This document shows, piece after piece, positions 1,549 to 21,702 of a stretch of 64,000 bases of DNA. The first letter of the stretch is position 1, and each line of letters begins with the position of its first letter. The position numbers were made by a program, and so were the translations under genes. The notes under the pieces were generated by a model. The model was given only the letters and a program-made list of their open reading frames with translations. It was not told the origin of the DNA and made no database searches. The DNA is taken from the NCBI GenBank assembly GCA_000165345.1, contig CM000434.1, positions 992,001 through 1,056,000 on the forward strand, written 5' to 3'.

Positions 1549-3110
1549 ATGTTGAACTGGATACATCTGCAAAAGAATTCATCAACTAATCTGGGAGCAG
1601 ATTATGATGATGATGGTAATTATTGCATAAATAATGATAATAAAAGTAATAATATAAGTGATAGTAATGGAATAATAAGTAAGATAGGCAAAAGCATTAT
1701 CGGCAACAATGTTGAAAAAGAGAAAAATAACTTAGAAAATGAAGAATACGAAAAAGTGAAAAGAAAGTTCTTGCAAGTTTGCAATGAAATTAACGTAAAT
1801 ATAATTAAATTAATAAATAGTGTATTAGTTAAAGACGAAGATAATATAGAAAAGTTAGAAAAAAGAGATGAAAGAGAAAAAATTTTTGAGAAAGTTATAA
1901 GTTATAGAAAAGACTTTAATAATATCTTTAGCACTGAAAAGAAGGAATTGAGTTTGAGAGGACCATTGGACGAAATTAAATTTATATTTCTTGATTTGGT
2001 GGATAAACAAGAAAAAGAATTGAATTTGTGGTTAAATGATAGGAATCAACAAAAAATGGAATGGAATGAAAGAGTTGAACGTATTTATAAACAAATATTC
2101 ACTTTATCTGAAATTTTCTGTGATTCTTTACTTCTAAACATAACATGTGTACTAGGATATGTTTCAATGGAAGAGCACTCTTTATGGGTAAGCATAATTT
2201 CTTTGCTTATTGTATTTGAAATAAGAAGTTGTCAGCATACAGTTTTATTAAAAGAAAATGAATTAATTAATGAAATTGATCAAGAAAATTTTGTAATACT
2301 TGAATGGCTTAATAAAAATTGTGATGAATTTTTTTCATTATTACTTAAACAATACTCAATAATTCCAATCACATATAAAATTGGAGAAGTACTTAGAGAT
2401 ATATCTACTATATTAAATCTTGCACAAGGTCCAGGAATTGTTGATAAACAAAATAATAAAACTTTCCCAATCTCAGAATCATTCAAGAATAAAAGTAATG
2501 AAATTGCAGAACATTTAATATATAAACAAGAAATCTTCACCAATTTAATTAAATTATCAGGAAATCAATGTTTTGACATATCTTCTGATTCTATTTCAAC
2601 TTTAAGGTGTTATTTATTTGTTTCACCTAAAATTACGAATGAATACATATTAAAGAATCAACAAGATTTTTTTTCAAATATATTCAAAATTCTAATCCAA
2701 TCAACTGAATATGTACCACAAAGGCATGGTTTAAGATTGTTAAATCAGTTATTATCATTAAAAGAACTCTCAAAAGTAATGACAGCATTTTCAAGTAACT
2801 GTGAATATCTCAAAATTTTTATGAATTTGATCACATCTCACTTAAATACTACTTCATTCGAAGCATTTCATATTTTTAAGCTTTTTGTTGCAAATCCCAA
2901 TAAATCACCAGGAATTCAAAAGATTTTATTTAAAAATAAAGATAAAATAGTTGAATTCCTAATTCATTTCCAAACTTCCAGAACTGATCCACAATTCATT
3001 TCAGATAAACAGGTAAGTCACTTACTTCACACATCAATTATTTTGCTAATAATAACCTTCTATTATTTCAGTTTGTAATTAATAAAATTAAAGATTTAAA
3101 AGCAATCTAA
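1549..3110 (+). CDS. MO25: MO25/Hym1 (calcium-binding protein 39)-like scaffold protein; two exons 1549..3012 and 3072..3110
   Basis: 509-aa ORF; C-terminal half aligns with MO25 family (…SFEAFHIFKLFVANPNK…KDKIVEFL…QTSRTDPQF). ORF read-through ends in junk, but splicing GTAAGT(3013)…AG(3071) in phase 0 restores the conserved MO25 C-terminus (SDKQ|FVINKIKDLKAI*, cf. human DEKTYLVKQIRDLK). Asn-rich N-terminal extension. Confidence 0.85.
3013..3071 (+). other. 59-nt spliceosomal intron of the MO25-like gene (GTAAGT donor, TTTCAG acceptor)
   Basis: cag|gtaagtc at 3010-3019 and ttatttcag|ttt at 3063-3074. Removal keeps frame and recreates the conserved MO25 C-terminal motif. Confidence 0.8.
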
Positions 3111-3144
3111 AATAATTCCTATTTTATATAACCATTTTTGCACA

Positions 3145-3158
3145 TTTTGGCGCCAAAA
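3145..3158. promoter_or_regulatory. perfect 14-bp E2F-type palindrome TTTTGGCGCCAAAA, 98 bp upstream of ATG 3256
   Basis: Exact palindrome. Located in the 145-bp spacer between genes. Confidence 0.6.
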
Positions 3159-10242: not shown

Positions 10243-13200
10243 TTGATCATCCTAAAGGAGGCTTGCGTTAAAAAAAAGGACCAAATGGTTCGTAATGGTG
10301 ATCAAAGTCTTATAAACATATCATCTACAGACAAGTCTGATAAATGGGACTTGAAGCATAAAAATGAAGAAATTCCAACCAGAAAAGTGGTGGAGGAATC
10401 AAGTCTAGAATACTACGAGAGATCATCGCGCTCGGCCTCGCACTTTGGTAAGGTTTATAATGGACTATATCCAGTAGGTCCAAGATTACCAAGTTTCTCT
10501 TCATCCAATAAAAGAAGTAGGCTACAGAGTACATATAATGAGGATGAGTTCAGTTCCAGTTCAGCAAATAGTTCTGTTATAAATTCCGATGATAAAATGT
10601 ATATTGATTTTCCAATTCGAAATTTCTGGAAGATTGCAAAGACTCCTATAGACATGGAATCTCCCCAAATTGGGTATTGTCGAGGCTTTTATTATAGATT
10701 GTTAGTTCATCCCAGAGGAGGGAGTTGTAATGATTCTGAAAGCAGCTACTTGAGCGTGTTTTTGGAAGCACTTTACCATGAATCATATCCAGACGATTGG
10801 ATTTTTCCAAATGTTCGATTTCAACTTTCAGTTGTAAACTTTTTAGACCCCAAAGCAAATATCACGTCTTGGGCCCATTGGACATTTTCTCATGATGCAA
10901 TGAGTAGAGGATGGCATAAGATGGTTTCACATGTGAGACTCACTAGAGCTGCAGGTTTTGTTGATGACGAAGGAACCGTGTTAATTAGAGGTAGAGCTGA
11001 GCCTCCATTTCCGAGAATTTGGTCAAGATCTCCTAAATGTAGGCCATGGAGTATATGGGGTACCTTACCCTATAGAAATGCATCAGCATTGGCTCAGTAT
11101 AAGCCTTGTATTACCGGAACCCGCCAAGATCAGAACCAAGGCTGTTCTGATAAGCATGTTATTACAACAAATCTTTGTGCTTTTCATGAATTAGCAGAGA
11201 ATTCTAATAGAGGTCTTCTTTCTTGTAGAGCAGAATCACTATCTTCAGAAAGTTGTGGCATTTCTCAACATCAGTTAGAAGGCTCCTTATTAGTAGGGAG
11301 TACTCCTTTGTCAATTATGGATAGACTTTTATGGTCCAGTAGTAATTTGTTTGTTCCAACTTTAAGATCTCAGCTTAATGTGGACTTTGTTCCTGCATTT
11401 GTCCATTTGCTTTACCATATCAAAGAGTTTAGGAGGGCAATTTTCTCTTGGAACCCACGAATCCCTAAGAAATGTTCAACAAATCAAAATCCCAATTCTT
11501 CAGAAAGGTCAAAGAAGCATGATCCCAATCATTCTCCCGCCTCATTTATAGACCCCCAACAGCCACGTACATCCATTATTGAGGCTCTTCAGAAAACCTT
11601 TGCATATATGACTCTCTGGCCAATTGCCTATTCTGTCAAAAGATCTATCCGACATAGCTGGCAAGAAAGAATAGCCACAGATCCTTCTCTTGTGGACGAT
11701 TGGTGTTTCTCTAAATGTTGTAAATGTGGTGGTGAATTTGACTCTTATCCTAACAGTCCTGAAATGACTGACACTTCATCACTCCATACATCAAATAGCA
11801 GAAATGGCCGGCATTGTGCTTCCGATAAAAGTATTCCAACCCAGAGTTCTATTTTCAAAGAAAAGGAATGTCTCAGATGCAAATTACCTCCTGTTCCAGA
11901 TTGTTCTTGGATTATGAAAGCTTTATATATGAACGATTTACAAAGGATTGATGTTGCTGACCCTCTCATGCGCTTCCATTGCTTCATTTTTGGCGCCATT
12001 TATTTGGAGTCTGCACATGCAATTCTCCAGATTGCCGCGCATCACAGAAAGTCAATTCCACAGAATTTCAGGGGTTCAGAAAAGTTTGCCAATTTAGAGT
12101 CATCTGAAGGGAAGGATGAGTTTGAGAGATCCGAATTAACTGATGGTGAGTATAAAGAGTTTAGAGAGTCGGATGAAAGGAGTTTAGGATCACAAAGAAC
12201 TAGAGATCAGGAACAAAGTCGAGGCCAAGGCCGAGGTCAAGGTCAAAGCCAAAACCAAGATCAAGATCAAAACCAGTACTATGATCATGGACAAACACAA
12301 GGACGAGATATGAATATCTCAATCTCTTCTATTTTTGACTTAGAAGAGGATCTGAGAGTCCCAACAGAGTTTGATAATACTTGCAGAGTATTGTTTTCCA
12401 GTGTAGCTGAAGATGGAGGTGATTGCTTCTCTGACTACTCCACGTGCTGCCTTAGAGCTAAGCATATTCATTCAATCCCCAAAGCTATTGAGCATTATGC
12501 TCACAGATTTAAAAGATTCCCTGAAACACTTTTTATTTACTTCACTCCTCCAAAAAATGCCAAGAAGGGAGAGTTGTTTGACGTTCCTTTTAGGCTTGAA
12601 GCATCATTTTTATTGGAGAATTCCAATGTAAATGTAAATACAGGTATCGGAGTGGTTGATCAAGATTTTAAGGGTATAAAATCTGATAATCGTGGACAAA
12701 ACACTAATCAACAAGAGGATATTCAACCTCTTGTCACTGAACAATTCCAAGATGATGAAGTTATTGATGAAAGTACTCCAGACCTGAAAGGTAAAGTTAG
12801 AGGTAATAAAGAAGCAACAGGCTCTGAATCTGGTCAAAATACAACGAGCGTAGTTTTGGACAATAATGATTCTGCATTATGTGTTGAATCCAATGATGAA
12901 TACTCTTTAGAATACGTCTCAGAGGATGGATTTGATGAGAATCAGGACACCTCTATTCAATCTGATAGTCAGGACGATACAACAGGACATAAAAGTGATG
13001 TCAAATCTCCAAATTCTGAGAACTTCTTTGGATCTTCCAGCCAATATATGGAAAAATGGTACTCATTATATGGAGTGATCATTAAAGAAGGAGACGCTTC
13101 TGGAAGTAATTCTACAAGAAGTGTTCATCAACTTCTAATTAGACCTGAAGAAGATGGTCCATGGTTTAGAATTTGTGATGGTTTAGTTGAAAGACTTATA

Positions 13201-16200
13201 CCAAAGATTGAATTCACAGAGTGGAAATGTCATGGTGGATTCTTTTGTGCTGCTGCTGTATATATTGCTGAGGATTACATTGATTCAATTGCTGCAGGAG
13301 ACGTAATGGCTGATTGTGATATAAAGACTATTAACCCAAAGCTATATCAAGAGACTCTAGATCTTCTGGAAGTTTCTGAGGAAGAACTTCAGTATATCCC
13401 ATCTTGGGTATCTACACAAGTTAATACTTATGGTCCAAACAATGTACATTTGGAGATGCCTTCTTCAGAAGTTGATCATCTTGCAATGTGTGTAGATATT
13501 GCAAACGTTACTGTATGTGACTCAACAACATGTGTATTTGGACATCCTCTAATGGATGCTGGTTTATCAATTGATCCTTACTCTTTATGGATGCTTGTTG
13601 ATTATCGTTGGGGTTGGCCTTTAGTAAACAGCTACTTCCAACTCCAAGAACCTTTGGTTCAAGCTTTTTCAGCAGATCCTTCTGTTATACTTTCTGGGAG
13701 GACTATTCTCACTCCTTCAGCTCAAAAGCTACTCAATTCATTATCATTCAAATCTTTACGAGATTCTATACCAAAGTTTTGGAGCTTATTATTCGATATT
13801 ATGTTAGGACCAGATTTGGATTCTAAGGATCTTGATGCAATTCTACAAGTAGTTCCTCATCTTAGATCTCTATCTGCTAATATATTTCTTGAGATCCATA
13901 GGCTTTTGGAAGAATTTGGTATTTCTGAGGAATCTCAAGATCTTTTATTCTCCCAATCTGAGCTATACTCTGCTTTAGAACCTGATGTTAATCATTGTGA
14001 AATTAATAAAGATGATCTTCAAGATCAAGATCAAGATCAACAACATGATAAAGGCTGTCTAAAAGAGTATTTAAAGAATAACATTACAATCGAAGATAAA
14101 CTGGTACCTTATAATAAAGTAAAAATGATTTTATATCCTTCAATTCCTTCTCATCCTCCAAGCTTCCAACTAAATCAAAATGAAATCACTCCATCTTATA
14201 ATATTGCTCTAAACTTCATTAACAGGCTTCACATCCTTCTTTGGCCTCATCTTATACATTTTATCTATGAGCTTCTTCCTGTTGCAATTACTATCAGACT
14301 AAAAAGACTTCTTTTCAAGAGTAGTGACGACCTCTTATTTGATCCCAGACTTACTCCTGAAGATCTTTGTGCTAGATTCTTAACAGAATCCAAGTTTCTA
14401 TTAGAATCTAGCTGTTGTCCACTTAACTTGATTAGATTCTGTGATAACAAACAGCTTTTGAATGCTGCAATAAACCAGGTAGCAGCAGCTTTAGATATAC
14501 ATGGATCATCATATACAGCAGCTTCTTGTTCTTTATCTTGTCCTACTAATAGAATGATTGATAGATTTGCTTCAGAGCTTGGAAGTTCAAACTTTGTAGT
14601 CCCAATATTGGTATATATTACTCAAATATTACTTTCTGGAACATTATATAGAGTATCATCAAAATTACTTCCACCTGAAGCTTTGTATACTTGGCCTACA
14701 AGTTCTTCAAATCAAGAATCTTTGTCTTTAACAGGTATCGGGAATTTAATTAATCATAAAGATTCCACGCCTTCAAAACAGTCAACTGGATCAAAAAAGA
14801 GGAATTCTTCAAATAAGTCTTCTTCTGGTACAGCAAGTTCTAATGGATTAATTGTACCAAATCCACTCTCAGAAGCAATTCAACATCTTCAAGTGAATCA
14901 GGTATCATTCAGTCATATTGATCCTTATGTATTTATTCCTCTTCATACATTCCACGCTGTATCAACTCCTTTATTGGTAAACATCATCTTTGAAAATGAT
15001 CTTATAGGGAGGAAGTCTTTTGCATCTGAGAGTTTTCTATGTGCTTCCAGAGTCCTTCATGTAAATAGACTTGCAACAGTAAGACATTTATACTCAGCAA
15101 TAAGAAAAGTTCTATATCAACAATTTCTAGATACAAAGATTTCTAATAGTTTAGATACTCCAGATGTAACACCATTAGATACTCCTCAATCTAAGAATAA
15201 TAATGAACATAATACAATAGGAGGAAGACAACAATCTTCTGGTCATACTCATACTAATAAGAAGAATACAATATCAAATATTCCGATACCTATAGATTGT
15301 GAAGGTTTTGATTTAAGTTGGATACCAAGTAATCCATTGGATGTTTTCTGTCTTTACTCTTTAAGACCAGATACTGATCCAACAAGAAGAGGAAGACTTA
15401 AATATACTTATATGCAACCAAATGACTTTCTAGAGAATCATTATTATGGACCTCACAAATCTAATTATGTTACGTATTGTGATGTTGCAATTTTAATTTG
15501 TGTACCTCCAGAATTGAAGCTCCAAATACCTCCAGGATCTCAGAATTCGGATCATATAACAAAAAATTCTTCATCCCAAATGAATACAGTATCGGTATCT
15601 GGAGTAGGGGTACCGGGAAAAGCAGCAAGCTTAATGGGGTCAATATCAGCAGGAATTGGAGAATCTGATTCAGATTGTGCATGTTTGTATACTTGTCCAA
15701 GTCATATAGCTCATTCACCAGTATGTCAGAGTTCAAGGATGATAGAAAAGACTGTTCCAAAAATCGTCTCACCTTTATTCAAGGCTAAACTAATAGATCC
15801 TTTATGGTCAAGTACTAAATTCCCAATGAATGATGATTCAGTTGCTCCTCTTTTGATTTTTAAATGGTTTGATCAGACAACTTTGGATATTACACTGTTA
15901 AGTGCATCAATATGTGAAGCAAGAAAGTCTTTAAGAGATTGTATTGTTTCTTGGGTATTCCCTAGAGCAAGAAGAATGGGATTAATGCCTCAAAATTCTT
16001 CTAAAGAGACTCCAAATGCAGATGATTATACAGTTTTAGAGGAATGTCATATTAGAGTATGTCAAAATGTAAGAAGATGGACTTCATCAATAAAGAAAAT
16101 CAATAGAACAACAGGAGATGTATTTATTGTTCAAAAAAGATACAATAATTTGGGATCATCCCAACCTCTGATTTCTGATTGTTCATTTATATCACCCTTT

Positions 16201-19200
16201 ATATCAGCAGCATTATCATCTAATTCATATTCGGGTATTGTAGATGACTTTCCGCCTTCTCTTTCAAGGGATGAGTTATTAGCTATAATTACTAGTATGA
16301 ATACTAAGAAGATTAACCAGCTTGGGATCTTTAATACTCCAATTAAAGGTATATCAGGAAGCAATTCTCCAACAGTATTAGATCTAAAAAAGAATAGTTT
16401 GGATAGAACTTGGCCGATATCTGCATCTCCTATGGGAGGAGATCCTAAATTAACCTTTTCACAATTCTTTGATATTCTTAAGCATGGGGACGATTCTGGG
16501 GACTTTTTAGCATCCCAAATTGAGGATTTGGATATCTATTCATATCAGAATAGTAGTTGTAAGATTTCTATGGAAGATATTTCTTCATTAAAATCCGGTA
16601 CCGATCAAGGAAATTCATTGAATCAGGCAGAAAAAGGTAATCATTCTGTAACTGGAGTTAGTAATGAAACAACTTCAATAGATTTGAAGTCAGTTACAAC
16701 ATTTACTAATACAAATACAGTACAGATTTTAAATGCAAACAACTCTAATCAAAATGATTTATCTGCAATTTCTAGTAACTCTTTAATTGGAGGAACAGGA
16801 GTGGCGGGAACTTCTGGAGGTGGATCTAAGAAGAAGAAAAAAGCTTCCAAGAAGCTTCCTGGAATTCCATCACTACAGAAATCAAGCATTGTGAAGGCTT
16901 TAAATGCTCAGAGAAGACTAGAATCTCAATCTACAAGACTTGTAGATAATGATTCAGCTGATTTATCAGGATTGAGAGGGAGAGATCAAGGTCAAGATCA
17001 TGATCAAGATCTTGATCATGATCGGAGTCAGGGTCAGAATCAGAATCAGGATCAGGGTCAGGGTCAGGGTCAAGCCCAGGATCATGATCAGGATCAGGAT
17101 CAACATAGTAATCAGTATAATGAAGAGGAATCCAAACAGGATAATAAGGGAAATGAAAAACGCAAAGAAGGTCATAAAGAGAAGGATGTTGAAAGAAGTG
17201 ATATTAAAGTAAACAATTTATCTACAGCTTTGAAAAAGGATGCAAACTCTCCTGAATCTATGGATAAAGCTGGCTTGGAGGCTAAGCCTGATTCATCTTC
17301 TCCTTCTTCCTCCTTTTCTTATGGAACTGTATCTCTTAGACCAGAAAAGCTTCAGAAAGTTCCTGATGAACTTTTTGAAATCGCTCTTGAAAGCTTTTCT
17401 GGAGACTCATTCAGTGTCTCCAGCTTAGTTGGCCGTTTATTGGAGCGTGTTATATGCAGATTTTCTGAGATCTCAAATAGAAAAAAGGAAGACTCCTCAT
17501 CTCATATTTCTGAAACCTTTTCTGATTCTAATAATAGATCCGAATTCCTATTATGGATGAATGGATTAAATGATCTCGTATGTAACTTATCTTTGATTGG
17601 AGGTAGCAAAAAGATTGACCAAACTCTTATTCAAAGAGAAATCATACAACTCCTTAGAAGACTTCTCTCAACTGAGACAAGTTCTCAACAACTTTCTAGT
17701 GTTGCATCTGAAAGTCTTTCATCTATAATTAAATATTTAGAGGATGGAAATCTTGAGCCTTGTTTTAAATCAATAATTTACAATATTCCACAAGTTGGAT
17801 CAGGATCAAGATCATTAATATCGGTACCTGGTTTATTAAAAACGATACCCAAATATGGTAATAATTTTAATAAAGAATCATTTAATAATTATTATAATAA
17901 TATGTATAATATTTTAGTACCAGTACAACAAAGATCTGCTATTTTGTTCACAATATTATTAATTAAAAGTTTAACAATACTGTCTCCAAGTTCAATAATA
18001 GAGATGCATCTTGGATTACTTCCTAAGACGGATTATATAAGATCTAATTCATTAATTAAATCAACAGGTTATAAATCAATTAAGTCGTTTGTTTTGTTAG
18101 CATACTTTTTGAATGTTTTTGGAGTTAAAGATGCAATGGATGTTATTATTTCAATACAAGGAGTTAAAGGATTTGAGAATCTATTGATTAGGATGGCATC
18201 CTATACTATAGGCTTGAGACAATATGCAACTAGTAACTTTATTATAGAGAATATTGAAAAGCTTCATGATCATCATCCATCTTTAGATTGGGTATCGTCT
18301 TTAAGAATTACTGATAAGTTAGCAATCAGTGAGGAAGTTCTTAAGAAGACTTTGGAGACTATTTGTGATCATTTTTCTACAAAGAGTAATTCAGCTTTTG
18401 CTCAGAATAAGAAGACTTTGGATTTAATACAAAATGTTGAAGGAATTGTCAGATTCTCAGATATCAATGATTTTGCATATGAACAGGCTCAATTATTAGA
18501 AATGAGAAAAGTTGGAAAAGATTCTCCTCAAATATTAGTTAATAATGATGACTTATGTATAATACTTAAACCTCCTTTCTGGTATTGTCCAATAGAAGGT
18601 ACAGGGATGGATGAGGATGAACAAGATGAGGAGGATAAACAAGATGAACAAGAAGAAAGTGTAGAATATGAAGAAGAATTAGAATACAAAGAAGATGAAA
18701 CTGATGGTGATAAAATAGAAAATCAAAGAAATGATGACAAGAAAAGAAGAAAGGTAAAAAAGAAGCTTGATCATGATAATATCCAAGATGAAAACAATAA
18801 GGATGAGAAAACAGGTATAAGAAAAGATCTTAAGAATAAAGTATCGAGTATTATAATTAAAGAAGAAGATAATGATTCTGAAATTGAAGTTGAAAAAGAT
18901 AATAATAATAGTAATACTGATGAATTTGAGGAGATTCTAAATAGTGGAAGAATGGAAAGTATCTTGAACTTTTTGAAATTAAGATGTAAAGGAATAGGCT
19001 TAGATTTAAGAGGTAACGAGAAAATGATTAAAAGAATTGGATTAAAACTTGGAGTTGAGATTGGAGGTCCAATATTAATTTTAAAGAATGAAGATATGGA
19101 GAAATACTATAATAAGAATGAGATCTTGAATCAAATTCATTGTCAGTATATATTTTTATGCCATGGACAGATTCAGAATTCTTCTGATAGAAATGTCTCT

Positions 19201-21702
19201 TTATCAAATATTGTCTCAAATGCTTCAAATAGAATATTCTCAAAATGTCTTTCATCAGATGGAGGTGATTCTATTGCAAAATATAATGTTTGTGAACATA
19301 TCAAGTTTAAGAATTATAATAAAGGTTCTCCATCCACATTTTCTTTATGTACATGTATTTCAAAACCCGGTAACGTAAATAAGATTAGAGCTTATATGCA
19401 TCAAATTGGTCATACAATTGTTGGTGATTCTAAACATCTTGGTCAGAAACAACTAAGTTTGGATAGAAGATATTTTCCTAATATATTCTTTTATTGTACT
19501 CATTTGGAGATTCCTTTAATGCAAAATAATAATGTTAAAAAAGATGGTGATCATGAAATAGAGGAAAAGCGTGATGGGAATACAATAATATTGGATAGTA
19601 ATGCAATAATAAATAAAGAAAGTATTAAAGTTATGGCTCCAGTTTCAAGAGATATAATGGAACTTCTTGAGAATGATTTTGAAATTACAGAAAAGTTCTC
19701 AGATATGTACTTTTGTCATTTTTATAAGACTAATGTTGAACTTGAAAAGTTGGATAAAGCTGAAAAGACTTCACAAGTTACCCCTTCTGATGCTGATATA
19801 GAAACTAGAGTTGGGGATGATTTAGTAGAGTATAATGAAATTAAGGCTACAAATATGAAATCTGGTAATGTTATTATTAATGATGAAAAAGATAAAAGAA
19901 AATGTTCAGAAAGTACAGAAAATGATAATTTTGAGCCTCTTAGTATATCAAATACTCTGATAGCTTCTCTTCCTGGACTTGGATTTGGACTTACACCATT
20001 TCTTGGTATGCCTAATTCTCAATATGCTGCAAGTGTGAATTGTTCTCAAGATGAGAAATCATTGGAACGTAAACAAAACCAGCGATTATCATTATCTTCT
20101 TCTTCCTCCTCTTCTTCTTCCTCCTCTTCTTCCTCCTCTTCTTCTTCCTCCTCTTCTTCCTCCTCTTCCTCCTCTACTTCTTCTTCAGTTCATACTATGA
20201 TACCGCCAGATTCGGCTAGCTTATCTTCTCCAACTCCGGCATCAACTTTACATGCAAAGACAAATGCTGGAGTATTTACATCATTTGGATTTGGAAGGAA
20301 TTTTCTAACATCTTCTGTTGATAATTCAACAAACTCTGCAAGCATTGGAGGTGGGATTGGAAGAGTTGGAGGAGGAATTGGAAATATTAGAGGTGGAGGT
20401 ATATCATCTACTGGTGGTATGACAGTTAATAATACTGGTTTAAGGCATTTGGTATCTCAACACAACCAATCCGGAGGTGGAAATGGAGATGGAAGTAGTA
20501 TCATTAACAGCAATAGTAACAATAGTGGTAATAACAATAATAGTAGTTCTCTTCCTATAAAGACTCATCCAAGCTTGGTTTCTTGTCTTACAGAATTAAA
20601 CTCAAAATCAGATGGATCTGCACTGGGAATTGGACTAAGTACGAGCAATTTGGTGCCTGGAGGAGGAAATATCTTCCATCAACAAAACTTCATGCAGGGA
20701 ATAATGACAGGAGGAACAGGAGGAATAGGATTGGGAGGTATAGCAGGAAGTTTAGCAGGTGGAGCTGCAGGTGGGGTAACAGGTGGGGTTGCAGGCGGAG
20801 TGGCAGGTGGAGCTGCAGGAGGTTTAACAGGAGGTGGAGTAGCAGGAGTAGGAGTTTCACCATCACCAATTTTCCAACATCACGGGAACAATACAGCTGG
20901 AATTGTAAATAGTGGAAGATATGGAAGCTTAACAATGAACAGTGGTATTAGAATGGATGCAGGCACTGGTACGTTAGGTAATAATGCAGTACAAATGCAT
21001 CATCAACAGCATCAACAACAACAACAAAGTTCAGGGGCAAAACAGGGCTGGAATACTCAAGATCTGCTTCAAAATCCAAGATGGACTTCATCTGAAGTTA
21101 ATAACGATGGTTTTGGAGGTGGAGTCAATAGAATTGTAGGAGGAGGAGGAGGAGTCTCTGAAGAAATGAATGTAAATCAATGGAATAATGGAATTGGCGG
21201 GAATTTCAGAGCTTTAAACTCAAGAGGAATTAATAATTCTGGAGGATTAAACCTGTCAACAGTTAACTTGGTTACAGGAATAGGTATTGGCGGCAACATC
21301 GGTATCAATAGTAATATTGGTATTGGCAGTAATATTGGTAATGGAAATAGTACCACTGGATTAGGAAATATAAATGTAACAGAAGGTACCGGTATAACAA
21401 TTGGATCAGGAGTAACAATGGGACCAGGAGTAACAATAGGACCAGGAGTAACAATAGGACCAGGTTTATGGGGACAACATGCTGCCCAACAGCAACCCTC
21501 AATCATTGTTGATCCTCCGTCTCAGGGGAAACATTCGTCAATGCAACAACAAATTGGAGGAATTCCCAATATTGTCTCAAATCTACATGCCAAAAACATA
21601 CAAGACGGAATTAGTTCCCAAAGATTTGATACTTTTCCTCATGAAAGGGGTGAAACTACTGAGCATTTGGAATCTAGACAAGGAAAGAAATCTCCATTTT
21701 AA
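10243..21702 (+). CDS. giant multidomain protein (3819 aa): MATH domain + degenerate USP-like region + low-complexity tracts + C-terminal RluA-type pseudouridine synthase-like domain
   Basis: Single 11.46-kb ORF. MATH/TRAF-like block (YIDFPIRNFWKI…GFVDDEGTVLIRGRAEP). USP-like Cys-box and His-box analogues with catalytic residues not obviously conserved (…FVHLLYHIKEFRRAIF…; YSLYGVIIKEGDASG…WFRICDGLVERL). RluA motifs ILVNNDDLCIILKPPFWYCPIEG … QYIFLCHG … KIRAYMHQIGHTIVGD … FFYCTHLEIPL. In-frame microsatellites. Alternative start MVRNGD at 10285. Confidence 0.8.
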   Translation: MIILKEACVKKKDQMVRNGDQSLINISSTDKSDKWDLKHKNEEIPTRKVVEESSLEYYERSSRSASHFGKVYNGLYPVGPRLPSFSSSNKRSRLQSTYNEDEFSSSSANSSVINSDDKMYIDFPIRNFWKIAKTPIDMESPQIGYCRGFYYRLLVHPRGGSCNDSESSYLSVFLEALYHESYPDDWIFPNVRFQLSVVNFLDPKANITSWAHWTFSHDAMSRGWHKMVSHVRLTRAAGFVDDEGTVLIRGRAEPPFPRIWSRSPKCRPWSIWGTLPYRNASALAQYKPCITGTRQDQNQGCSDKHVITTNLCAFHELAENSNRGLLSCRAESLSSESCGISQHQLEGSLLVGSTPLSIMDRLLWSSSNLFVPTLRSQLNVDFVPAFVHLLYHIKEFRRAIFSWNPRIPKKCSTNQNPNSSERSKKHDPNHSPASFIDPQQPRTSIIEALQKTFAYMTLWPIAYSVKRSIRHSWQERIATDPSLVDDWCFSKCCKCGGEFDSYPNSPEMTDTSSLHTSNSRNGRHCASDKSIPTQSSIFKEKECLRCKLPPVPDCSWIMKALYMNDLQRIDVADPLMRFHCFIFGAIYLESAHAILQIAAHHRKSIPQNFRGSEKFANLESSEGKDEFERSELTDGEYKEFRESDERSLGSQRTRDQEQSRGQGRGQGQSQNQDQDQNQYYDHGQTQGRDMNISISSIFDLEEDLRVPTEFDNTCRVLFSSVAEDGGDCFSDYSTCCLRAKHIHSIPKAIEHYAHRFKRFPETLFIYFTPPKNAKKGELFDVPFRLEASFLLENSNVNVNTGIGVVDQDFKGIKSDNRGQNTNQQEDIQPLVTEQFQDDEVIDESTPDLKGKVRGNKEATGSESGQNTTSVVLDNNDSALCVESNDEYSLEYVSEDGFDENQDTSIQSDSQDDTTGHKSDVKSPNSENFFGSSSQYMEKWYSLYGVIIKEGDASGSNSTRSVHQLLIRPEEDGPWFRICDGLVERLIPKIEFTEWKCHGGFFCAAAVYIAEDYIDSIAAGDVMADCDIKTINPKLYQETLDLLEVSEEELQYIPSWVSTQVNTYGPNNVHLEMPSSEVDHLAMCVDIANVTVCDSTTCVFGHPLMDAGLSIDPYSLWMLVDYRWGWPLVNSYFQLQEPLVQAFSADPSVILSGRTILTPSAQKLLNSLSFKSLRDSIPKFWSLLFDIMLGPDLDSKDLDAILQVVPHLRSLSANIFLEIHRLLEEFGISEESQDLLFSQSELYSALEPDVNHCEINKDDLQDQDQDQQHDKGCLKEYLKNNITIEDKLVPYNKVKMILYPSIPSHPPSFQLNQNEITPSYNIALNFINRLHILLWPHLIHFIYELLPVAITIRLKRLLFKSSDDLLFDPRLTPEDLCARFLTESKFLLESSCCPLNLIRFCDNKQLLNAAINQVAAALDIHGSSYTAASCSLSCPTNRMIDRFASELGSSNFVVPILVYITQILLSGTLYRVSSKLLPPEALYTWPTSSSNQESLSLTGIGNLINHKDSTPSKQSTGSKKRNSSNKSSSGTASSNGLIVPNPLSEAIQHLQVNQVSFSHIDPYVFIPLHTFHAVSTPLLVNIIFENDLIGRKSFASESFLCASRVLHVNRLATVRHLYSAIRKVLYQQFLDTKISNSLDTPDVTPLDTPQSKNNNEHNTIGGRQQSSGHTHTNKKNTISNIPIPIDCEGFDLSWIPSNPLDVFCLYSLRPDTDPTRRGRLKYTYMQPNDFLENHYYGPHKSNYVTYCDVAILICVPPELKLQIPPGSQNSDHITKNSSSQMNTVSVSGVGVPGKAASLMGSISAGIGESDSDCACLYTCPSHIAHSPVCQSSRMIEKTVPKIVSPLFKAKLIDPLWSSTKFPMNDDSVAPLLIFKWFDQTTLDITLLSASICEARKSLRDCIVSWVFPRARRMGLMPQNSSKETPNADDYTVLEECHIRVCQNVRRWTSSIKKINRTTGDVFIVQKRYNNLGSSQPLISDCSFISPFISAALSSNSYSGIVDDFPPSLSRDELLAIITSMNTKKINQLGIFNTPIKGISGSNSPTVLDLKKNSLDRTWPISASPMGGDPKLTFSQFFDILKHGDDSGDFLASQIEDLDIYSYQNSSCKISMEDISSLKSGTDQGNSLNQAEKGNHSVTGVSNETTSIDLKSVTTFTNTNTVQILNANNSNQNDLSAISSNSLIGGTGVAGTSGGGSKKKKKASKKLPGIPSLQKSSIVKALNAQRRLESQSTRLVDNDSADLSGLRGRDQGQDHDQDLDHDRSQGQNQNQDQGQGQGQAQDHDQDQDQHSNQYNEEESKQDNKGNEKRKEGHKEKDVERSDIKVNNLSTALKKDANSPESMDKAGLEAKPDSSSPSSSFSYGTVSLRPEKLQKVPDELFEIALESFSGDSFSVSSLVGRLLERVICRFSEISNRKKEDSSSHISETFSDSNNRSEFLLWMNGLNDLVCNLSLIGGSKKIDQTLIQREIIQLLRRLLSTETSSQQLSSVASESLSSIIKYLEDGNLEPCFKSIIYNIPQVGSGSRSLISVPGLLKTIPKYGNNFNKESFNNYYNNMYNILVPVQQRSAILFTILLIKSLTILSPSSIIEMHLGLLPKTDYIRSNSLIKSTGYKSIKSFVLLAYFLNVFGVKDAMDVIISIQGVKGFENLLIRMASYTIGLRQYATSNFIIENIEKLHDHHPSLDWVSSLRITDKLAISEEVLKKTLETICDHFSTKSNSAFAQNKKTLDLIQNVEGIVRFSDINDFAYEQAQLLEMRKVGKDSPQILVNNDDLCIILKPPFWYCPIEGTGMDEDEQDEEDKQDEQEESVEYEEELEYKEDETDGDKIENQRNDDKKRRKVKKKLDHDNIQDENNKDEKTGIRKDLKNKVSSIIIKEEDNDSEIEVEKDNNNSNTDEFEEILNSGRMESILNFLKLRCKGIGLDLRGNEKMIKRIGLKLGVEIGGPILILKNEDMEKYYNKNEILNQIHCQYIFLCHGQIQNSSDRNVSLSNIVSNASNRIFSKCLSSDGGDSIAKYNVCEHIKFKNYNKGSPSTFSLCTCISKPGNVNKIRAYMHQIGHTIVGDSKHLGQKQLSLDRRYFPNIFFYCTHLEIPLMQNNNVKKDGDHEIEEKRDGNTIILDSNAIINKESIKVMAPVSRDIMELLENDFEITEKFSDMYFCHFYKTNVELEKLDKAEKTSQVTPSDADIETRVGDDLVEYNEIKATNMKSGNVIINDEKDKRKCSESTENDNFEPLSISNTLIASLPGLGFGLTPFLGMPNSQYAASVNCSQDEKSLERKQNQRLSLSSSSSSSSSSSSSSSSSSSSSSSSSSSTSSSVHTMIPPDSASLSSPTPASTLHAKTNAGVFTSFGFGRNFLTSSVDNSTNSASIGGGIGRVGGGIGNIRGGGISSTGGMTVNNTGLRHLVSQHNQSGGGNGDGSSIINSNSNNSGNNNNSSSLPIKTHPSLVSCLTELNSKSDGSALGIGLSTSNLVPGGGNIFHQQNFMQGIMTGGTGGIGLGGIAGSLAGGAAGGVTGGVAGGVAGGAAGGLTGGGVAGVGVSPSPIFQHHGNNTAGIVNSGRYGSLTMNSGIRMDAGTGTLGNNAVQMHHQQHQQQQQSSGAKQGWNTQDLLQNPRWTSSEVNNDGFGGGVNRIVGGGGGVSEEMNVNQWNNGIGGNFRALNSRGINNSGGLNLSTVNLVTGIGIGGNIGINSNIGIGSNIGNGNSTTGLGNINVTEGTGITIGSGVTMGPGVTIGPGVTIGPGLWGQHAAQQQPSIIVDPPSQGKHSSMQQQIGGIPNIVSNLHAKNIQDGISSQRFDTFPHERGETTEHLESRQGKKSPF
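12210..12275 (+). repeat. in-frame (GGY/CAA/GAT)n-type microsatellite encoding GQGRGQGQSQNQDQDQNQ in giant ORF
   Basis: caaggccgaggtcaaggtcaaagccaaaaccaagatcaagatcaaaaccag. Confidence 0.8.
16981..17105 (+). repeat. second in-frame GAT/CAG/GGT trinucleotide repeat (encodes DQGQDHDQDLDHD…QNQNQDQGQGQGQAQDHDQDQDQ) in giant ORF
   Basis: gatcaaggtcaagatcatgatcaagat…cagggtcagggtcagggtcaa. Confidence 0.8.
20092..20188 (+). repeat. (TCT/TCC)n microsatellite encoding a ~30-residue poly-serine tract in giant ORF
   Basis: tcttcttcttcctcctcttcttcttcctcc… continuous for ~95 nt. Confidence 0.9.
20707..20855 (+). repeat. Gly-rich GGxAGG hexapeptide-type repeat (ggtggggtaacaggtggggttgcaggcggagtggcagg…) in giant ORF
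   Basis: Repeated ggNgSNgcagg units encoding GGVAGGVAGGAAGGLTGGGVAGVG. Confidence 0.75.
21403..21465 (+). repeat. tandem 18-nt repeat (ggaccaggagtaacaata x ~3.5) encoding GPGVTI repeats
   Basis: ggatcaggagtaacaatg ggaccaggagtaacaata ggaccaggagtaacaata ggaccagg. Confidence 0.9.

Follow-up and report, generated by a model that had tools for sequence, protein, structure and literature searches.

The host gene and its domain

The stretch analysed here, referred to as the window, comprises 64,000 nucleotides of Cryptosporidium parvum chromosome 6 (GenBank assembly GCA_000165345.1, contig CM000434.1, positions 992,001 to 1,056,000 of the forward strand). Seven of its open reading frames (ORFs) are identical to Iowa II proteins, including MO25, GPN-loop GTPase 3 and RPT1. 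The window is AT-rich, with a GC content of 23-39%, and its long intron-free ORFs are closely packed. A giant single-exon ORF on the + strand (10243-21702; 3819 amino acids (aa) from a mechanical TTG start) is cgd6_4290, and it hosts a domain related to the RluA family of pseudouridine synthases that is probably catalytically dead and is nevertheless maintained by selection. The gene assignment follows from a published marker for multilocus variable-number tandem-repeat (VNTR) analysis, cgd6_4290_9811 (MSC6-5), whose four primers match the window exactly, at 20060/20200 and 19976/20266; the marker position places the annotated ATG at 10285 (20095-9811+1). Residue numbers given below count from 10243, unless ATG numbering is indicated, and those of the annotated protein are obtained by subtracting 14.

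Nucleotides 18523-19680 (aa ~2761-3146) encode a true RluA-family pseudouridine synthase fold. An RluA-like domain had been placed at 18540-19520 in an original prediction made from the letters of the sequence; the domain is there, with wider limits than these, as it continues past a second short variable insert to 19680. All of its parts lie on the + strand. It opens with beta strands carrying motif I (SPQILVNNDDLCIILKPPFWYCPIEG; 18523-18600), which align to the (v)KPxG/FW strand of homologues. The motif I text DLCIILKPPFWY lies at 18550-18585 and IILKPPFWYCPIEG at 18559-18600, within the giant ORF, and an acidic stretch follows directly, just as had been noticed. After this acidic insert (18601-18933) comes helix alpha-1 (ILNSGRMESILNFLKLRCK; 18934-18990) with the subfamily motif SG+xES, which hmmalign shows to be kept in the homologues from Besnoitia, Selenidium and Cardiosporidium; the helix ILNSGRMESILNFL adjoins the insert directly, its conserved part beginning ILNSGRMES. 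A loop that differs in length and sequence between species (GIGLDLRGNEKMIKRIG; 18991-19041) includes the text GIGLDLRGNE and leads to a degenerate motif II, LKLGVEIGG, the equivalent of HR[LIT]DxxTSG (19042-19068). Motif IIa, CQYIFLCHG (19141-19167), keeps the active-site Tyr in the hmmalign alignment. Motif III is again degenerate, with KPGNVNKIRAY in place of xTGRTHQIRVH (19363-19395): the first Arg and the His are both replaced by Asn, and the Arg of QIR is kept. The strand NIFFYCTHLEIP (19480-19515) corresponds to the (L/M)FLHA motif with Tyr for His (FLH to FFY) and is followed by a short variable insert; C. ubiquitum has ~55 extra residues after this strand. The last strand and helix, IKVMAPVSRDIMELLENDF (19624-19680), correspond to the canonical 'f.APlP.dm..lL' C-terminus, are conserved among the Cryptosporidium species compared, and have as their counterpart NFVAPLPEDMEKILQTL in the homologue P0001.

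Relationship to the RluA family

The kinship of the domain is established by searches more sensitive than a single Pfam scan. A word-indexed protein search with the insert in place had one bacterial S4 plus PF00849 protein (RluD-like; E=4.8e-3) among the matches listed, aligned by BLASTP over 182 residues at 28% identity, and the same search without the insert gave no match. With phmmer, the post-insert core (18931-19689) gave 75 matches at E<=1e-3 among 1.84 billion representative proteins. Four of these are orthologous giants and the others range from E=3e-11 upward; all nine of the non-orthologous matches sampled are PF00849 proteins, scoring 69-117 bits. The insert-deleted construct found nothing among PDB sequences with phmmer. 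With a profile built from Cryptosporidium sequences, E-values are 1e-31 to 1e-41 for the giants of other apicomplexans and 1e-13 to 1e-32 for canonical synthases, and a Cryptosporidium-only profile matches the E. coli RluC crystal structures 1v9k (E=2.8e-7) and 1xpi (E ~3e-7). On PF00849 (PseudoU_synth_2) the C. muris orthologue reaches 18.5 bits (E=0.0025), under the gathering threshold of 26.8 bits.

The domain is also predicted to adopt the RluA-type catalytic-domain fold. In an AlphaFold2 model of aa 2741-3190 the core blocks have a predicted local distance difference test (pLDDT) of 85-94. The motif I strands (E23-27 and E31-36, model numbering) are modelled at pLDDT 92-93, the alpha-1 stretch (H150-159 and H167-174) lies in a block of 82-86, and the C-terminal strand and helix (E387-391 and H396-405) fall in blocks of 90 (residues 381-390) and 84 (391-400). 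Foldseek with this model returns RluA 2i82 first (E=4.8e-10), then RPUSD1, RluD, RluC and RPUSD4; since the alignment supplied to AlphaFold2 contained canonical RluA-family proteins, the fold match is not independent of sequence homology and serves to corroborate it.

Active-site residues

The register of motif II is ungapped and identical in three alignments, namely BLASTP, hmmalign to the orthologue profile, and the profile against RluC. In all of them the catalytic Asp column falls on Gly2937 of the C. parvum protein (codon GGA, 19051-19053), whereas the column holds Asp in 57/57 non-Cryptosporidium homologues. HRLD is replaced by LKLG, with Lys for the base-flipping Arg and Leu for the preceding His, and TSG by IGG; no HRLD occurs anywhere in the domain region. 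The earlier remark that no HRLD motif was evident is thus borne out, and the conservation check it had proposed for the Asp gives a clear answer. In motif III, PGNVNKIR stands for (T)GRxHQIR and retains only the terminal IR. Its first Arg column, Asn in C. parvum, is Arg in 65 and Lys in 2 of 67 non-Cryptosporidium homologues. The Tyr column of motif IIa is Tyr in all 59 homologues from outside the genus and in C. parvum as well.

Within the genus, these columns fall into three patterns. The C. parvum clade has Gly for the catalytic Asp, Asn for the first Arg of motif III, and the motif IIa Tyr intact. C. bovis and C. ryanae share the Gly and the Asn and have Phe for the Tyr. The gastric clade (C. 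muris, C. andersoni and C. serpentis) keeps both Asp and Tyr and has Ser at the first Arg of motif III; motif II reads VTFD[DY]EISG in all three gastric species, in which HR, GRTH and TS are already lost.

GIGLDLRGNE (18991-19020), originally put forward as the best candidate for the catalytic motif, has to be discarded. It lies upstream of motif II in the length-variable loop, and its Asp is unconserved even within the C. parvum clade, being without counterpart in C. ubiquitum and in the chipmunk genotype; the C. ryanae loop is ~28 residues longer.

In pseudouridine synthases the catalytic Asp is reported to be conserved without exception and indispensable for catalysis (Del Campo et al. 2001, cited in bioRxiv 10.1101/2023.02.23.529727). 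Because the residue is universally required in the superfamily, the C. parvum domain would no longer catalyse uridine isomerisation.

Selection on the domain

Orthologous loci were collected by searching with the downstream neighbour gene and taking 10 kb upstream in six species, together with an exhaustive phmmer search. For C. felis no orthologue was recovered, the contig ending at the neighbour gene. The reading frame is open across the domain locus in 7/7 species examined. The C. canis orthologue (JAPCXC010000008.1, 1-9627) is annotated as two genes (1445 aa and 1874 aa) separated by a pair of small antisense genes; a single frame is open across the whole 9.6 kb, and the two-gene annotation is probably a split gene model and no real difference.

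The core of the domain is under strong purifying selection. Ratios of non-synonymous to synonymous substitution rates (dN/dS) were calculated by the Nei-Gojobori method for the core (aa 2903-3095, ATG numbering) against the three closest species, dS being saturated for C. canis, C. bovis and C. ryanae. They are 0.090 against C. meleagridis, 0.078 against chipmunk genotype I and 0.089 against C. ubiquitum, and neighbouring regions of cgd6_4290 lie at 0.12-0.26. The core value is the lowest of six C-terminal segments in the comparison with C. meleagridis and among the lowest in the comparisons with the chipmunk genotype and C. ubiquitum. Two blocks, NRIFSKCLSSDG..SIAKY and SPSTFSLCTC..K.GN.NKIR.YMH.IGHTIVGD, are near-invariant from C. 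parvum to C. bovis and C. ryanae, and the thumb-loop NRIFSK is conserved. From alpha-1 to the FFY strand the core carries a net charge of +12; among 50 homologues the mean is +8.5 (standard deviation 5.7). The original prediction had also considered a non-catalytic remnant. Its first half agrees with the Gly at the Asp column and the other losses in the pocket, while 'remnant' does not suit a core with a dN/dS of ~0.08-0.09, below that of its flanks.

The acidic insert

The insert occupies the loop after beta-1 (18601-18933, + strand; aa 2787-2897), counted from where the beta-1 strand ends to where the conserved helix ILNSGRMES begins. An acidic insertion of ~130 aa had been described here; the insertion is real, at 111 aa. 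It consists of 40% Asp plus Glu with a net charge of -24, and is predicted to be disordered, with pLDDT <50 at residues 48-140 of the AlphaFold2 model. Its position is that of the forefinger loop, which contacts the RNA minor groove in complexes of RluA, RluB and RluF (PMC3919597).

C. parvum, C. meleagridis, C. ubiquitum and chipmunk genotype I have the insert at full length; in C. canis it spans ~35 aa, and C. bovis, C. ryanae and C. muris lack it. Between C. parvum and C. meleagridis its dN/dS is 0.30, against 0.09 for the core. All eukaryotic relatives in the subfamily have an expansion of 25-45 aa after beta-1, followed by the conserved SG+xES. Because the loop is already expanded in these relatives, and C. 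bovis, C. ryanae and C. muris have no such insert, the insert is a clade-specific low-complexity expansion of a surface loop and does not split the catalytic core. The earlier picture of a disordered insertion tolerated inside the core therefore holds as to tolerance and predicted disorder and fails as to place. Low-complexity loop expansions are routine in apicomplexan proteins. The insert may best be viewed as a recent, fast-evolving and disordered expansion of the forefinger loop that stands outside the conserved mechanism of the domain.

Apicomplexan relatives and origin of the domain

The best scores of the Cryptosporidium profile outside the genus belong to giant proteins of other apicomplexans. 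These include Selenidium pygospionis P001374 (P0074; 4462 aa), with MATH_2, USP7_ICP0_bdg and PseudoU_synth_2 (76 bits); Besnoitia besnoiti BESB_018670 (P0104; 6719 aa), a 'MATH domain-containing protein' with the motif HRTDLETSG; and Cardiosporidium cionae KAF8819531, named 'RNA pseudouridine synthase superfamily protein'. Two gregarine transcripts are also among the top profile scores, and the gregarine protein P0141 has MATH_2 and PseudoU_synth_2. The apicomplexan giants share the layout of cgd6_4290 and are clearly homologous to it along their length, with a MATH domain, a conserved block (aa 345-1007 in ATG numbering) and a synthase domain with the SG+xES helix and an expanded post-beta-1 loop. 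Unlike the Cryptosporidium proteins, they have canonical HRxDLETSG, TGRTHQIRVH and FLH motifs and reach 73-76 bits with PF00849. The largest P. vivax protein is reported to contain a pseudouridylate synthase domain and a TRAF-like region (PMC10993292), and it probably shares the giant MATH to PseudoU_synth_2 architecture. This architecture is therefore pan-apicomplexan and, by its sequence motifs, looks ancestrally catalytic.

The domain of cgd6_4290 would thus derive from a synthase domain with a canonical site, apparently active, that homologous giant MATH proteins have at the equivalent position. Inactivation apparently began in the Cryptosporidium stem with the loss of pocket residues; it is placed there because the gastric clade already lacks HR, GRTH and TS yet keeps the Asp. 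The change of Asp to Gly would have come later, after the split of the gastric clade, on the branch from which C. bovis, C. ryanae and the intestinal species descend. The distribution of residues, from which the polarity of the changes is drawn, suggests a stepwise degeneration specific to Cryptosporidium.

Other features of cgd6_4290

An N-terminal MATH/TRAF domain (10609-11010, + strand; aa 124-243) is recognised by Pfam MATH_2 with E=1.5e-9 and 38.6 bits (cut-off 32), and it is the sole Pfam domain scored in cgd6_4290. Its identity to the C. parvum sequence is 93-95% in C. ryanae and 90-93% in C. muris. Whole-protein identity is only 50% (C. ryanae) and 38% (C. muris), and the MATH domain is among the most constrained parts of the gene.

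A second block after the MATH domain (11317-13305; aa 359-1021, or aa 345-1007 in ATG numbering) is conserved across Cryptosporidium and recurs in the Besnoitia, Selenidium and gregarine giants, with hidden Markov model scores of 226-297 bits. By eye it resembles a ubiquitin-specific protease (USP): LNVDFVPAFVHLLYHIKEFRRAIF recalls the Cys box without its Cys, and YSLYGVIIKEGD...WFRICDG the His box without its His. Profiles of the block found no USP in the PDB, Pfam gave no match to UCH (PF00443) in the C. parvum, Selenidium or gregarine homologues, and the AlphaFold2 model of aa 345-1007 has a pLDDT of 30. A dead USP7-like protease at aa 345-1007 is accordingly to be treated as a lead, not a result. 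Of a USP7-like architecture, cgd6_4290 has the N-terminal MATH domain and no recognisable USP catalytic domain. In the Pfam scan the C. parvum protein gave no match to USP7_ICP0_bdg (PF12436), and the Selenidium protein scored 27.7 bits, barely over the 27-bit cut-off.

Several eukaryotic relatives in the RluA subfamily carry ubiquitin-related domains. One of them, a 1004-aa protein from a Logan assembly (P0072), combines PseudoU_synth_2 with UBA and UIM. By domain content, fusions of the P0072 type are a second, independent tie of the synthase subfamily to modules of the ubiquitin system.

Low-complexity sequence is abundant elsewhere in the gene. A poly-Ser array of TCT/TCC codons (~30 codons, 20095-20186) in the C-terminal tail is the C. 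parvum typing marker MSC6-5. In-frame tandem arrays lie at 16983-17103, 20344-20397, 20743-20849 and 21301-21464, and consist of GATCAG hexamers (DQ/GQ runs) and of Gly/Ala/Val and Gly-Pro-Gly-Val/Ile-Thr-Ile repeats with periods of 12-48. Indels in the cgd6_4290 gene have been reported across all C. hominis and C. meleagridis genomes (PMC7718795), and the tandem arrays are likely to be the sites of these. The same paper labels the orthologue a 'WD-40' protein; Pfam scans of the whole protein and of pieces gave no WD40 match, and the label is not adopted here. Within the fast-evolving low-complexity tail, a stretch of 23 residues, SLPGLGFGLTPFLGMPNSQYAAS (19966-20034), has the same sequence in C. 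parvum and C. muris and is a candidate conserved short linear motif. The protein read from the ATG at 10285 was absent from a large protein collection by word-indexed search and by exact look-up, in which all of its neighbours are present.

Interpretation and alternative explanations

By homology and fold the domain belongs to the RluA family, and by the defining catalytic motifs it fails as an enzyme. We consider it likely that it is a catalytically dead and selectively maintained pseudoenzyme module of cgd6_4290. As the fold is under strong purifying selection, it would be kept as a non-enzymatic binding or structural module of the cgd6_4290 scaffold, most likely still as a nucleic-acid- or partner-binding surface. 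For RNA binding in particular the chances seem roughly even; the net positive charge of the core and the conserved thumb loop speak for it.

Several points weigh against this interpretation. PF00849 gives no match to C. parvum at E<=10, whether with the whole protein, a 550-aa segment, overlapping 600-aa pieces or the insert-deleted construct. The absence of any PF00849 match, which the original prediction had named as grounds for rejecting the domain, is formally true of C. parvum, but homology is not refuted by it because the more sensitive searches establish homology; judged from these alignments, the missing match reflects divergence and not want of homology. The family members in the AlphaFold2 input alignment take from the fold match its independence. 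Loss of activity is deduced from the identity of the residues. The lost base-flipping Arg speaks against canonical RNA binding, and within the C. parvum clade so does an insert of charge -24 placed in a loop that contacts RNA. Identity of the domain to C. muris is 37-52%, compared with 90-93% for MATH, and over the genus as a whole the N-terminal 2000 residues are better conserved than the domain. The constraint on the domain is real, yet it is not the strongest in cgd6_4290.

Preservation of the fold, of the QIR Arg and of the active-site Tyr in C. parvum, purifying selection on the core and the Asp kept by C. muris could all be read as signs of a synthase that is still active, tolerates its insertion and uses as nucleophile either the Glu of KLGVEIGG, two residues after the Gly, or the Asp of GIGLDLRGNE. 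Neither residue is a convincing substitute. The Glu aligns with the extra, non-catalytic D/E of HRxD-x-[DE]-TSG and so is no replacement, and the Asp sits in a loop of variable length and has no counterpart in C. ubiquitum or the chipmunk genotype. Four further pocket positions (HR, TS, GR-H and LH) have been lost together, Phe for Tyr in C. bovis and C. ryanae indicates relaxed catalytic constraint, and the Asp itself is described as universal and essential (Del Campo et al. 2001, through bioRxiv 10.1101/2023.02.23.529727). An active enzyme is extremely improbable on these grounds. A decaying relic without function of its own, carried along inside an essential giant gene, would account for the stepwise loss of active-site residues, for a domain that Pfam no longer recognises, for low-complexity insertions built up at two loops and for a region less conserved than the N-terminal part of the gene. 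It is very improbable all the same, as decay is at odds with a core dN/dS of ~0.08-0.09 that is the lowest of the six C-terminal segments against C. meleagridis, with long blocks near-invariant to C. bovis and C. ryanae, with a frame open in all seven species, and with the well-packed core that AlphaFold2 predicts.

Closer to the pseudoenzyme interpretation is a fold re-purposed for protein-protein interaction or for structure, without RNA binding, its acidic insert repelling nucleic acid or attracting basic partners by mimicking it. In favour of this, a MATH domain, which is a protein-protein adaptor, is central to the host protein; the base-flipping Arg is lost; and a disordered segment of charge -24 takes the place of the loop by which RluA, RluB and RluF bind the RNA minor groove in their complexes. 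However, C. bovis, C. ryanae and C. muris have the same degenerate domain without the insert, and for this reason the insert cannot define a conserved function. The core, at +12, is at least as basic as canonical enzymes, and the NR motif of the thumb loop and the QIR Arg are kept. We regard this possibility as unlikely. A broader and quite improbable conjecture is a giant scaffold specific to the apicomplexan lineage that joins a USP7-like module, composed of MATH, a USP-like block devoid of Cys and ubiquitin-like domains, to an RluA synthase, and that would link the recognition of substrates or adaptors with RNA modification; neither of the two enzymatic halves would be active in Cryptosporidium, the synthase fold serving as a regulated RNA- or partner-binding clamp and the forefinger loop of the C. 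parvum clade as an RNA-mimicking, auto-inhibitory tail of charge -24.

Comparison with known pseudoenzymes

A maintained pseudoenzyme has precedents in the family. In human RPUSD3 the position of the catalytic Asp is occupied by Gly, and the protein is regarded as a pseudoenzyme that mitochondrial 16S rRNA function requires (bioRxiv 10.1101/2023.02.23.529727; PMC12710931). Compared by published description, RPUSD3 and the C. parvum domain share the RluA fold, the loss of HRLD and Gly for Asp (RASG and LKLG, respectively), and RPUSD3 is regarded as non-catalytic yet functionally required. The C. parvum domain likewise has a non-acidic residue at the Asp position and is under purifying selection. 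RPUSD3 is a small stand-alone mitochondrial protein, whereas the C. parvum domain is embedded in a MATH protein of 3.8 thousand aa and bears a 111-aa insert; its Asp was lost independently, within one apicomplexan genus.

In Trypanosoma brucei, mt-LAF3 is an RluA-family ribosome assembly factor with the motif HNLD, and its D211A mutant complements fully; the Asp is not needed for growth of the bloodstream form, for mitochondrial membrane potential or for levels of mitochondrial rRNA and mRNA (bioRxiv 10.1101/2023.02.23.529727). Unlike the C. parvum domain, mt-LAF3 (Tb927.9.3350; PDB 6yxx chain EC) keeps its Asp, is mitochondrial and single-domain, and has a known RNA partner. Set against the active enzymes RluA, RluC, RluD, RPUSD1 and RPUSD4, the C. 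parvum domain has replacements at the Asp, at HR, at TS and at the Arg and His of GRTHQIR, and has no S4 domain.

Implications for Cryptosporidium and the RluA family

The names given to cgd6_4290 and its orthologues go no further than 'MATH domain-containing' or 'hypothetical', and pipelines based on Pfam miss the synthase domain altogether. No description of a dead synthase domain was found in the literature that mentions cgd6_4290, mostly VNTR typing and reference-service papers and partly judged by title. The homologues of Plasmodium, the Toxoplasma group and gregarines look catalytically competent, and function is therefore not to be transferred from them to Cryptosporidium.

The genus and its relatives provide a natural series, from the canonical site of other apicomplexans, through the gastric species (C. 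muris, C. andersoni and C. serpentis), in which only the Asp is left, to the Gly of C. bovis, C. ryanae and the intestinal clade. A theme known from RPUSD3 and mt-LAF3 is extended in this way to a case that has arisen independently inside a giant multi-domain protein, and the series lets one ask what the synthase fold does once the chemistry has been removed.

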